Assembly: GCA_963817905.1 (NCBI GenBank)
Contig: CAWFPS010000001.1
Coordinates: 131,647 to 195,646 of the forward strand
Direction of reading: 5' to 3'
Origin: an uncultured Solirubrobacterales bacterium
GTDB taxonomy: Bacteria > Actinomycetota > Thermoleophilia > Solirubrobacterales > 70-9
Length of the DNA: 64,000 bases
The notes beneath the pieces were generated by a model. The model worked only from the letters and a program-made list of their open reading frames with translations. It did no database searches and was not told the DNA's origin. This document shows positions 56,239-58,947 of this stretch, piece after piece. The translations under genes were made by a program, and so were the position numbers. Every line of letters starts with the position of its first letter. The stretch's first letter is position 1.

Positions 56239-56402
56239 CGTTCGCGCTCATCGTCTCGTCGGGCATGGGCGGACAAGGTTAGCCGCCGTGGATCAAGCGG
56301 GTTAGCCAAGCGTGAACTGAACGAAACTTCCCTTGGGGCCACGCTTGGTGGTCAATCTTTCAATTGACCACTCCTGTTGTTAGTCTTGCTTCTACATAAG
56401 CG

Positions 56403-56519
56403 CCACATCTAGAGGGGTGGAGGGACTGGCCCGATGAAACCCCGGCAACCGCCCCGGACCGACAGGTTCGGGGGAGGTGCCAACTCCAGCAGGTCAAGTC
56501 AAAGGCCTGGAAGATGTGG
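56403..56519 (+). promoter_or_regulatory. SAM-I (S-box) riboswitch aptamer
   Basis: The P1 stem is CCACATC/GATGTGG. The conserved core reads AGAGGGGTGGAGGGACTGGCCCGATGAAACCCCGGCAACC...GGTGCCAACTCCAGCAGG...CCTGGAAGATG. Confidence 0.9.
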
Positions 56520-56533
56520 GGAATGTCCGATCG

Positions 56534-56564
56534 GGCCTCCCCCACAAAAGGCGGAGGTTTTTTT
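56534..56564 (+). terminator. intrinsic terminator of the riboswitch expression platform
   Basis: GGCCTCCCCCACAAAAGGCGGAGG is followed by a run of seven T residues, 34 nt before the ThrC-like start. Confidence 0.8.
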
Positions 56565-56597
56565 GTTGGCGGCAAGGCAACGAGAGGGATAGATCGG

Positions 56598-57830
56598 ATG
56601 TCAATCGAGAATCTGAGATGCAAGGAGTGCGGGGCGACCTATGACCTCGGCGCGCACTTCGCCTGCGAAAACTGCTTCGGGCCGCTGGAAGTGGCCTACG
56701 ACTACTCGGCCCTGGACCCGGCCGAGACCAAGCGCAAGATCCAGGCCGGCTCGCAGGGAATCTGGCGCTACGCCGACTTTCTGCCCTTCGAGGGCCGTCC
56801 CGGCGACCCGCTTGAGCCCGGCCTTACCCCGCTCCTGCGCGCCGACCGCCTCGCGGAGCGGCTCGGGGTGGACGGCGAGATCTGGATCAAGAACGACGCC
56901 GCCAACCCGACCCACTCCTTCAAGGACCGGGTCGTCGCCGTTGCCGTCGCCAAGGCCCAGGAGCTGGGCTTCGACACCGTCGCCTGCGCCTCGACCGGCA
57001 ACCTCGCCAACGCCGTCGCCGCCCACGCCGCCGCCGCGGGTCTCAAGTCCTACGTCTTTGTGCCCGCCAACCTCGAGGAGCAGAAGCTGCTCGCCACCGG
57101 CATCTACGGCACCAACCTGGTCGGCGTGCGCGGCAACTACGACGACGTCAACCGCCTCTGCACCCAGCTCGCCGAAACCCGGCCCTGGGCCTTCGTCAAC
57201 GTCAACCTGCGCCCCTACTACGCCGAGGGCTCGAAGACGCTCGCCTACGAGACGGCCGAGCAGCTCGGCTGGAAACTGCCCGACCGGGTCGTCTGCCCGA
57301 TCGCCTCCGGCTCGCTCTTCACCAAGGTTGGCCGCGGCTTCCAGGAGTGGCTGGACATCGGCCTCATCGAGGGAGAGCAGCCGATCTTCAACGGCGCCCA
57401 GGCGGAGGGCTGCAGTCCCGTCGCCACTGCCTTCGCCGAAGGCTGGGACGTCTGCAAGCCGCAGCGGCCCGACACGATCGCCAAGAGCCTGGCGATCGGC
57501 GACCCGGCCGACGGCCCGTACGCGGTCGAGCAGGCCCGCCGCACCGGCGGTGGCGTCGACTCGGTGACCGACGCCGAGATCCGCGACGGGATCAGCCTGC
57601 TGGCCGAGACCACCGGCATCTTCACCGAGACCGCCGGAGGGGTAACCGTCGGCGTACTGAAGAAGCTGGCCGAGCGCGGCGAGATCGGTGCCGGCGAGCG
57701 GGTCGTCGTCTACATCACCGGCGAGGGGCTGAAGACGCTCGACGCGACCCGCGATAGGTTCCGCATGCACGAGATCGACCCCGTCCTCGAGAGCTTCGAG
57801 ACCGAGTTCGCCCAGGAGGTAACCGCCTGA
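56598..57830 (+). CDS. threonine-synthase-family PLP enzyme with N-terminal zinc ribbon
   Basis: The product starts MSIENLRCKECGATYDLGAHFACENCFGPLEV. The PLP lysine motif is NPTHSFKDR. The SD sequence GAGAGGGA lies upstream of ATG 56598. Confidence 0.85.
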   Translation: MSIENLRCKECGATYDLGAHFACENCFGPLEVAYDYSALDPAETKRKIQAGSQGIWRYADFLPFEGRPGDPLEPGLTPLLRADRLAERLGVDGEIWIKNDAANPTHSFKDRVVAVAVAKAQELGFDTVACASTGNLANAVAAHAAAAGLKSYVFVPANLEEQKLLATGIYGTNLVGVRGNYDDVNRLCTQLAETRPWAFVNVNLRPYYAEGSKTLAYETAEQLGWKLPDRVVCPIASGSLFTKVGRGFQEWLDIGLIEGEQPIFNGAQAEGCSPVATAFAEGWDVCKPQRPDTIAKSLAIGDPADGPYAVEQARRTGGGVDSVTDAEIRDGISLLAETTGIFTETAGGVTVGVLKKLAERGEIGAGERVVVYITGEGLKTLDATRDRFRMHEIDPVLESFETEFAQEVTA

Positions 57831-58102
57831 TGCCAGTCACCGTCAAGATCCCAACCCAGCTGCGCGCCGCCACCGACGGGGAAGCGGAGCTCGAGGTGAG
57901 CGGCTCGACCGTCGGCGAGGTGCTCGACGCGGTCTTCGAGGCCCACGGCACCCTGCGCGAGCGGATCACCCAGGACGGGGACCTGCGGCGGTTCGTCAAC
58001 GTTTACGTGAGCGGCGAGGACATTCGCTTCCTAGAGGGGCTGCAGACCCGGATCGAAGATGGAGCCGAGATCACCATTTTGCCCGCGGTCGCTGGTGGTT
58101 GA
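57830..58102 (+). CDS. MoaD/ThiS-family sulfur-carrier protein (C-terminal GG)
   Basis: The product is 90 aa and ends ...ITILPAVAGG. A TGATG overlap links it to the ThrC-like gene. Confidence 0.8.
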   Translation: MPVTVKIPTQLRAATDGEAELEVSGSTVGEVLDAVFEAHGTLRERITQDGDLRRFVNVYVSGEDIRFLEGLQTRIEDGAEITILPAVAGG

Positions 58103-58218
58103 GCGGTCATCCCGGCAGGGGTTCCGCTTAACTTTTTCGGTGGAGCGTTGGACTGCTGGCGCCCGGAGGTTGGAGACGAAAAAGTACAAGACGCTCCACC
58201 CCTGCCGGGATGACCGCT
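58102..58218. repeat. 117-nt element bounded by perfect 20-nt inverted repeats
   Basis: AGCGGTCATCCCGGCAGGGG (58102-58121) pairs with CCCCTGCCGGGATGACCGCT (58199-58218). An inner pair is TGGAGCGT/ACGCTCCA. The right arm contains the ATG (58210) of the next gene. Confidence 0.85.
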
Positions 58219-58947
58219 AAGCCGCCGGTCGTCGTGCTCTGCGGTGGCCGCGGGACCAGGTTGCGGGAGCGGACTGAGACCGTTCCTAAGGCGCTCGTGG
58301 AGATTGGGGCGAAGCCGATTCTCTGGCATGTGATTGGGATCTATGCGGCGCAGGGGTTTGAGCGGTTTCTGCTTGCCACCGGTTATTTGGGCGAGATGGT
58401 GGAGGGGTTCGTGGCGGGGGAAAGCTGGCCCGGTGGGGTGGAGGTCGAGTGCGTGGATACGGGGCTCGATACGCCGACTGGAGGGCGGATCGCGCGGCTC
58501 GGGGAGCGCTTGGGAGATGGGACCTTCTGTGCCACCTACGCGGATGGCGTCGCCGATGTGGACCTCGATGCGCTGCTCGGCGCCCACCGCGAAGGCGGCG
58601 CGCTGAGCACGGTGACCGTCGTCCAGCCGCACCTTCAGTGGGGCGTTGCCGAGATCGGCGGCGACGGCAGGGTCGAGGGCTTCGTCGAGAAGCCGCGCAG
58701 CGAGCACTGGATCAACGGCGGCTTCTTTTGCTTCGAGCCGGGAGCCCTCGACTACATCGGCGCCGAGAGCGTGCTCGAGCGCGAGCCGCTGGAGCGCCTC
58801 GCCGCAGCGGGAGAGCTGGCCGCTCACCGCCACGAGGGCTTCTGGGACTGCATGGACACCTACAAGGACGCCGTAGAGCTAAACGACCTCTGGGCCTCAG
58901 GTTCACCGCCGTGGACGACGTGGGCGACCGAAGCAGAGGCCCGATGA
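58210..58947 (+). CDS. rfbF: glucose-1-phosphate cytidylyltransferase
   Basis: Recognised motifs are VVVLCGGRGTRLRERTETVPKALVEIG..PILWHV, INGGFFCFEP and FWDCMDTYKD. Confidence 0.85.
   Translation: MTAKPPVVVLCGGRGTRLRERTETVPKALVEIGAKPILWHVIGIYAAQGFERFLLATGYLGEMVEGFVAGESWPGGVEVECVDTGLDTPTGGRIARLGERLGDGTFCATYADGVADVDLDALLGAHREGGALSTVTVVQPHLQWGVAEIGGDGRVEGFVEKPRSEHWINGGFFCFEPGALDYIGAESVLEREPLERLAAAGELAAHRHEGFWDCMDTYKDAVELNDLWASGSPPWTTWATEAEAR

Follow-up and report, generated by a model that had tools for sequence, protein, structure and literature searches.

The window analysed here is a stretch of 64,000 nucleotides from an uncultured Solirubrobacterales bacterium (assembly GCA_963817905.1, contig CAWFPS010000001.1, positions 131,647 to 195,646), and it carries a two-gene operon, metM-metO, preceded by an S-adenosylmethionine (SAM) riboswitch of the SAM-I class. 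We consider it highly probable that this SAM-repressed operon constitutes a thiocarboxylate route from O-phosphohomoserine to homocysteine, in which MetM, a pyridoxal phosphate (PLP) enzyme with the fold of threonine synthase (ThrC), would use sulfur delivered by MetO, a small carrier protein ending in Gly-Gly. A preliminary description of the locus, made from its letters, had proposed such a MetM/MetO-type route under SAM control and had called it non-canonical. The sequence, the tree and the content of the genome argue for the route itself. The implied novelty did not stand, as the pathway is catalogued in GapMind 2026 (PMC13759103), whose entry lists MetM, MetO, MoeZ and Mec as an O-phosphohomoserine pathway described in Streptomyces albulus (Hasebe, Adachi, Maruyama and Hamano 2024, Appl Environ Microbiol 90:e01247-24); a further paper places a SAM riboswitch upstream of S. 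albulus metM (PMC12172450). The system is already known and the locus described here is a further instance of the catalogued MetM/MetO pathway; no new question is opened, because publications of 2024 already cover the chemistry as well as the link to the riboswitch. The two genes are:

56598 to 57830, forward strand: metM, encoding a PLP enzyme of ThrC fold, the predicted homocysteine synthase dependent on the MetO thiocarboxylate (from the translation, profile matches and the tree)

57830 to 58102, forward strand: metO, encoding a sulfur carrier of the ThiS/MoaD family with a C-terminal Gly-Gly (from the translation and profile matches)

The product of metM is 410 amino acids (aa) long and starts at ATG 56598, downstream of the terminator of the leader. 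A start at ATG 56514, given by automatic calling of the open reading frame, was rejected: it sits within the aptamer. The protein matches Pfam PALP with 244 bits and the NCBIfam threonine synthase model TIGR00260 with 278 bits against a cut-off of 167 bits, and carries the PLP-lysine motif NPTHSFKDR. Its closest solved structures are threonine synthases (6cgq, E 3e-58; 2zsj, E 1.6e-57), which match from residue 55 onwards. Within the first 50 residues lies a zinc-ribbon-like motif of four cysteines, C8-x2-C11...C23-x2-C26, and thus both halves of the earlier characterisation, a ThrC-family PLP enzyme with an N-terminal zinc ribbon, were recovered. The four cysteines are retained in 44-45 of the 45 sequences of the clade to which MetM belongs. 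A riboswitch-linked homologue of Streptomyces achromogenes is 57% identical to MetM over 403 aa, zinc-ribbon region included; identity to the ThrC encoded by the same genome is 39%.

These matches might be read as those of a second threonine synthase, an isozyme repressed by SAM with a carrier unrelated to the chemistry of the enzyme. Besides the TIGR00260 score and the solved relatives, the names given to the homologues in databases, 'threonine synthase', speak in its favour. However, the TIGR00260 model fails to separate MetM from ThrC, and according to GapMind 2026, in its remarks on this enzyme, MetM 'is often misannotated' as threonine synthase (PMC13759103). The genome search covered the assembly of the window, 3.57 Mb in three contigs (C1, which holds the window, C2 and C3) and 93% complete. 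It contains three ThrC-family genes: metM in the window, a third paralogue and a canonical thrC. The last lies on contig C3 in a lysA-hom-thrC-thrB operon and scores 303 bits with TIGR00260. The possibility, left standing by the preliminary description, that the window held the only thrC of the genome is thereby removed, and a second threonine synthase would come on top of one already encoded between hom and thrB.

Positions invariant in six canonical ThrCs are replaced throughout the MetM clade: an Asn by Arg205, an Arg by Tyr208 and the sequence GNAG by ASGS at 235-238. The replaced Asn/Arg pair lies in what we take to be the phosphate-binding region of ThrC. In a maximum-likelihood tree of 77 sequences (a quick build, with supports from the Shimodaira-Hasegawa-like approximate likelihood ratio test, SH-aLRT), five ThrCs of solved structure and the one encoded by this genome formed a clade with a support of 99, and MetM fell outside it, so that clustering with canonical threonine synthases, which the preliminary description had also kept in view, was not what the tree gave. 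MetM was placed in a clade of 45 rows (SH-aLRT 93) that also holds all the actinobacterial proteins linked to a riboswitch, six from Streptomyces among them. Repression by SAM and an obligate pairing with a Gly-Gly carrier would moreover make no sense for threonine synthesis. Combined, these points leave the isozyme very improbable. What MetM shares with canonical ThrC (6CGQ, 2ZSJ, 1UIM, 2D1F) is the fold, the PLP-lysine motif SFKDR and, presumably, the substrate O-phosphohomoserine; it differs from it in the additional N-terminal CxxC...CxxC module, the sulfur-carrier partner and the SAM riboswitch.

The third ThrC-like paralogue (C3:19597-20967, reverse strand; locus L099:2597-3967) has the same N-terminal cysteine motif of the zinc-ribbon type. 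It shares most of the residues specific to the MetM clade, yet forms a clade of its own (SH-aLRT 96). It has neither a riboswitch nor a nearby carrier gene, and its neighbours are a gene resembling electron-transfer flavoprotein (ETF)-ubiquinone oxidoreductase and a fragment of a class I tRNA synthetase.

The second gene of the operon encodes a protein of 90 aa with the C-terminus ...PAVAGG, which matches Pfam ThiS (PF02597) with 54.6 bits and NF041918 with 68 bits. The stop codon TGA of metM (57828-30) and the ATG of metO (57830-32) overlap as TGATG, by which metO is translationally coupled to metM. The reading at 57828-58102 agrees with the 90-aa MoaD/ThiS-like protein ending in GG that had been noted at this place. 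MetO stops exactly at Gly-Gly, and would therefore need no C-terminal trimming, whereas the carriers of some relatives end in GG-C, GG-S or GG-A. Among solved structures it comes closest to CysO proteins, 4n6e_B (E 2e-23) and 3dwg_C of Mycobacterium tuberculosis (E 1e-19), the latter match bearing out the suggestion that the mycobacterial CysO/CysM system is a related precedent. The folds of enzyme and carrier are fixed by sequence matches to the solved ThrC and CysO structures. MetO is 51% identical to P0292, a Streptomyces MoaD/ThiS family protein of 92 aa that came from the same look-up listing as the Streptomyces homologues of metM, and likewise 51% identical to the CysO paralogue of its own genome. 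The flanks of metM-metO consist of a divergent CorA gene upstream and, downstream, genes for a nucleotidyltransferase, an epimerase/dehydratase and an SRAP peptidase. Because these genes are unrelated to it, the operon is taken as a unit made of the leader and two genes.

The kinship of the carrier with CysO raises the question of another carrier-dependent sulfur insertion, either the formation of cysteine from O-phosphoserine, as with mycobacterial CysM/CysO, or that of a thioamino acid of secondary metabolism; 4n6e_B is, we assume, a CysO protein co-opted for thiosugar synthesis. The cysteine role is filled elsewhere in this genome, by a separate cluster of E1-like activating enzyme (E1), cysO and cysM genes, and MetM has the ThrC fold and not that of the CysM/CysK type. 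The only SAM-I riboswitch of the genome controls metM-metO, pointing to methionine, and the neighbours, CorA and sugar-nucleotide enzymes, are unrelated, and therefore do not make up a biosynthetic cluster. Taken together, this evidence makes a sulfur insertion outside methionine synthesis the least probable of the explanations considered.

The partner proteins expected for the carrier are encoded at a distance. No E1 or JAMM protein was found within the window, as the preliminary description had stated, and genome-wide the ThiF and Prok-JAB matches lay only on contigs C2 and C3. The E1 on contig C3 has 389 aa, with a rhodanese domain at 16-105 followed by a ThiF domain at 124-358, a domain order that is reversed with respect to MoeZ of the S. 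albulus pathway. It scored 373 bits with the MoeZ model NF005902, whose cut-off is 647, and 516 bits with NF006444, whose cut-off is 449; it lies outside the MoeZ equivalog but is predicted to work like MoeZ. Its gene is directly upstream of a gene for a CysO-like Gly-Gly carrier and a gene of the cysM/cysK type (C3:357927-360577, reverse strand; locus L096:5928-8578). A JAMM protein of 132 aa (PF14464, 84.7 bits) is encoded about 3 kb from cysM. Because of this E1-cysO-cysM cluster with a JAMM gene nearby, the organism probably also makes cysteine via a protein thiocarboxylate. Elsewhere on the same contig, one frame of 541 aa (C3:1081329-1082492, reverse strand; locus L097) has matches to both the ThiF family and Prok-JAB. 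It is a JAB-E1 fusion of a type seen in bacterial systems of ubiquitin-like conjugation or of defence, and has no relation to the methionine pathway.

The usual enzymes of homocysteine synthesis were then sought in the whole genome. The best match to PF01053, the family of MetB, MetC, MetY and MetZ, was a partial one of 30 bits, while all 14 of 14 control genomes scored. The best match to MetX reached 26 bits and none was accepted; MetA/HTS and the NIL domain gave no match in the genome. The check for metA, metX and metY proposed with the earlier reading therefore returned no MetA, MetX or PF01053 enzyme. MetH is present as a frame of 1172 aa. Because no MetA, MetX or MetB/C/Y/Z-type enzyme was found, MetM/MetO probably provides all the homocysteine that the organism makes.

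The control of the operon was analysed from the leader, whose elements are the following:

56402 to 56520, forward strand: SAM-I riboswitch aptamer, a four-way junction of P1-P4 (from the RF00162 covariance match and covariation)

56514 to 56546, forward strand: antiterminator helix, in which UGUGGGG at 56514-20 pairs with CCCCACA at 56540-46

56533 to 56564, forward strand: intrinsic terminator, a hairpin (GC core 56536-57, extended 56533-60) followed by U7 at 56558-64

56582 to 56589, forward strand: putative ribosome-binding site GAGAGGGA, 8 nt ahead of ATG 56598 (from reading the sequence)

A scan of the whole window with covariance models (cmscan) returned two RNAs, the SAM-I aptamer and one unrelated tRNA. 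The aptamer, for which the run against RF00162 had been suggested beforehand, covered model positions 1-108 of 108 with 90.4 bits (E 3e-20), about twofold the gathering score of 44.4. When 28 homologous leaders were aligned, 11 of the 25 predicted pairs, spread over P1, P2, P3 and P4, were retained with both sides changed. In the 3.57-Mb genome RF00162 has one match, that at the metM-metO operon; a riboswitch was searched for at the third ThrC-like paralogue, at the cysO-cysM cluster and at the thrC operon, and none was found.

The T7 intrinsic terminator described previously is borne out by a hairpin with a folding energy of -13.6 kcal/mol and the seven U that follow. The antiterminator helix has an energy of -17.8 kcal/mol when 56510-56550 is folded alone. 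Because this helix draws one strand from P1 (its 3' strand) and the other from the terminator (its 5' arm), it excludes both P1 and the terminator. This layout is that of a classical SAM-I off-switch. At high SAM, SAM would bind the aptamer and lock P1, the hairpin with its U7 would form and transcription would halt before metM; at low SAM, the 3' strand of P1 would pair with the terminator 5' arm as antiterminator and the operon would be transcribed. The response to SAM is one that we infer from the folded structures. Upstream of the aptamer, a scan for the sigma-70 consensus gave no promoter match.

The distribution of these features was assessed in relatives. The nearest loci are all from Solirubrobacterales metagenome-assembled genomes (MAGs), with 84-97% protein identity. 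A homologue of metM (E 1e-80 or better) was found in 176 of 401 sampled Actinomycetota genomes, with at least 52% identity among the matches listed. RF00162 was present immediately upstream of the homologue at 20 of 20 sampled loci of Thermoleophilia and Actinomycetes, and at 17 of 20 further loci taken across the phylum, including six of six from Streptomyces. These six (from S. achromogenes, S. aureus, S. fructofermentans and three more) were drawn from the search of 401 genomes, their proteins being matched by exact sequence. All the Streptomyces homologues are annotated 'threonine synthase', and the same look-up lists Streptomyces entries of 92 aa named 'MoaD/ThiS family protein'. Three loci from other families (L200, L201 and L208) have neither riboswitch nor carrier.

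The mode of control differs between groups. Terminators, counted as a hairpin followed by a run of at least 5 T and sought from the aptamer to the start codon by folding in multiple windows, were detected at 76 of 78 Solirubrobacterales loci (the window counted) against one of the 79 loci of an Actinomycetes set. In that set the aptamer ends some 10-20 nt from the start codon (18 nt in the Streptomyces locus L189), while the riboswitch of the window has an intrinsic terminator and lies 77 nt before the start codon. The leader alignment places a GAGGA-like sequence within the 3' strand of P1 of the Actinomycetes leaders, and because P1 holds this sequence, control at the level of translation is likely for these loci.

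The carrier gene is adjacent to metM at every Solirubrobacterales locus with enough DNA and at six of six Streptomyces loci. A search seeded with a Micromonosporaceae homologue yielded 80 actinomycete loci with no Streptomyces among them. At about 78 riboswitch-linked loci (L109-L186; Micromonospora, Actinoplanes, Frankia, Blastococcus and relatives) no ThiS-like carrier gene was found within 3 kb. Because of this, a carrier must act in trans in those Actinomycetes, and the enzyme family can use a carrier encoded elsewhere, or none. The sulfur donor at the carrier-less loci is possibly a CysO encoded elsewhere, or free sulfide. One may extend this to the window and suppose a MetM-type homocysteine synthase for which MetO is dispensable, the sulfur coming from free sulfide or the CysO paralogue and the adjacent carrier being one donor among several, or a regulator; the 51% identity between MetO and the CysO of this genome would fit. 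Against it stand the constant adjacency of the carrier in Solirubrobacterales and Streptomyces, the TGATG coupling seen here and the published enzyme, which the GapMind 2026 summary describes as MetO-thiocarboxylate-dependent (PMC13759103). We regard a dispensable MetO as unlikely, and retain the thiocarboxylate of MetO as the predicted sulfur donor.

Compared with the Streptomyces system, including that of S. albulus, the locus has the same arrangement of a ThrC-homologous PLP gene directly ahead of a ThiS/MoaD carrier gene of about 90 aa with a SAM-I riboswitch upstream, and the genome likewise encodes the E1 and the JAMM hydrolase elsewhere and has a separate housekeeping thrC. With respect to S. 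albulus MetM/MetO, no parallel route of the MetA, MetX or MetY type is visible in the window genome. The CysM/CysO/Mec/MoeZ system of M. tuberculosis (PDB 3DWG) is similar in that a PLP enzyme combines a phosphorylated amino-acid substrate with a protein thiocarboxylate. Unlike M. tuberculosis CysM, the enzyme of the window is of ThrC fold, carries four cysteines in its N-terminal part, is under SAM control and is predicted to convert O-phosphohomoserine to homocysteine. A ThiS-like protein thiocarboxylate reportedly also gives the sulfur of homocysteine in Wolinella succinogenes, in the HcyS/HcyF/HcyD/MetY system of Krishnamoorthy and Begley. That system uses O-acetylhomoserine and MetY, an O-acetylhomoserine sulfhydrylase of PF01053 fold; in contrast, neither a PF01053 enzyme nor a homoserine acyltransferase was detected in the window genome.

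The pathway that we propose is modelled, in its chemical steps, on the system published for Streptomyces and on mycobacterial CysM/CysO. ThrB, the homoserine kinase, would produce O-phosphohomoserine. The rhodanese-ThiF E1, supplied from the other contig where it is encoded beside cysO-cysM, would adenylate the Gly-Gly end of MetO and lead to its thiocarboxylate. MetM would remove the phosphate from O-phosphohomoserine and add the thiocarboxylate sulfur of MetO at the gamma carbon. Homocysteine would be released, possibly with the help of the JAMM hydrolase, and MetH would methylate it to methionine.

Several points weigh against this reading. Firstly, concerning the enzyme, the support of 93 that joins MetM to the Streptomyces proteins is under the 95 mark in what is a quick tree; the cut-off of TIGR00260 is exceeded, so that sequence models alone name MetM a threonine synthase; and the genome contains the closely related third ThrC-like paralogue. 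Orthology to S. albulus MetM (A0A059WBP2) is argued via other Streptomyces homologues of the same locus layout. Secondly, concerning the carrier, the label MetO derives from adjacency and translational coupling, as its sequence does not distinguish MetO from CysO. Thirdly, the organism is known as an uncultured MAG and the pathway is a prediction read from the genome; at 93% completeness, missing genes of the MetX/MetY type are not proof.

Two further sequence elements flank the operon. Positions 56347-56372, in the intergenic region between the divergent corA and the riboswitch, hold an inverted repeat of 10 bp, GGTGGTCAAT-N6-ATTGACCACT, some 30 nt ahead of the aptamer; it could be a protein operator or an element of the promoter region. 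On the other side, the spacer between metO and the next gene (58102-58222) is an element of about 117 nt with perfect inverted ends of 20 nt, which folds, at -79.6 kcal/mol, into a single long hairpin; the ATG of the nucleotidyltransferase gene that follows lies within the element. A BLAST search against the genome itself returned at least 34 copies of nearly full length (76-88% identity), spread over all three contigs, together with partial copies. Because of these many copies the element is a dispersed repeat resembling repetitive extragenic palindromes (REP) or miniature inverted-repeat transposable elements (MITE), and not a regulator specific to the operon; it may act as the 3' end of metM-metO.

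In every database row seen, metM is labelled 'threonine synthase', and the mislabel is widespread. Because of this label, reconstructions of Solirubrobacterales, which are very common uncultured soil actinobacteria, would wrongly predict methionine auxotrophy. In practice, the genome gains a corrected annotation and a complete predicted methionine pathway consisting of hom, thrB, metM/metO with the E1, and metH. The genome also hints that the sulfur of cysteine and that of homocysteine both pass through protein thiocarboxylates. For the lineage as a whole, the arguments seem to us evenly balanced as to whether MetM/MetO is the sole homocysteine route and not a back-up, with one E1 serving both CysO and MetO and all SAM-I control resting on one switch of the terminator type. 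If true, Solirubrobacterales would be a natural case of both sulfur amino acids being made wholly through protein thiocarboxylates.

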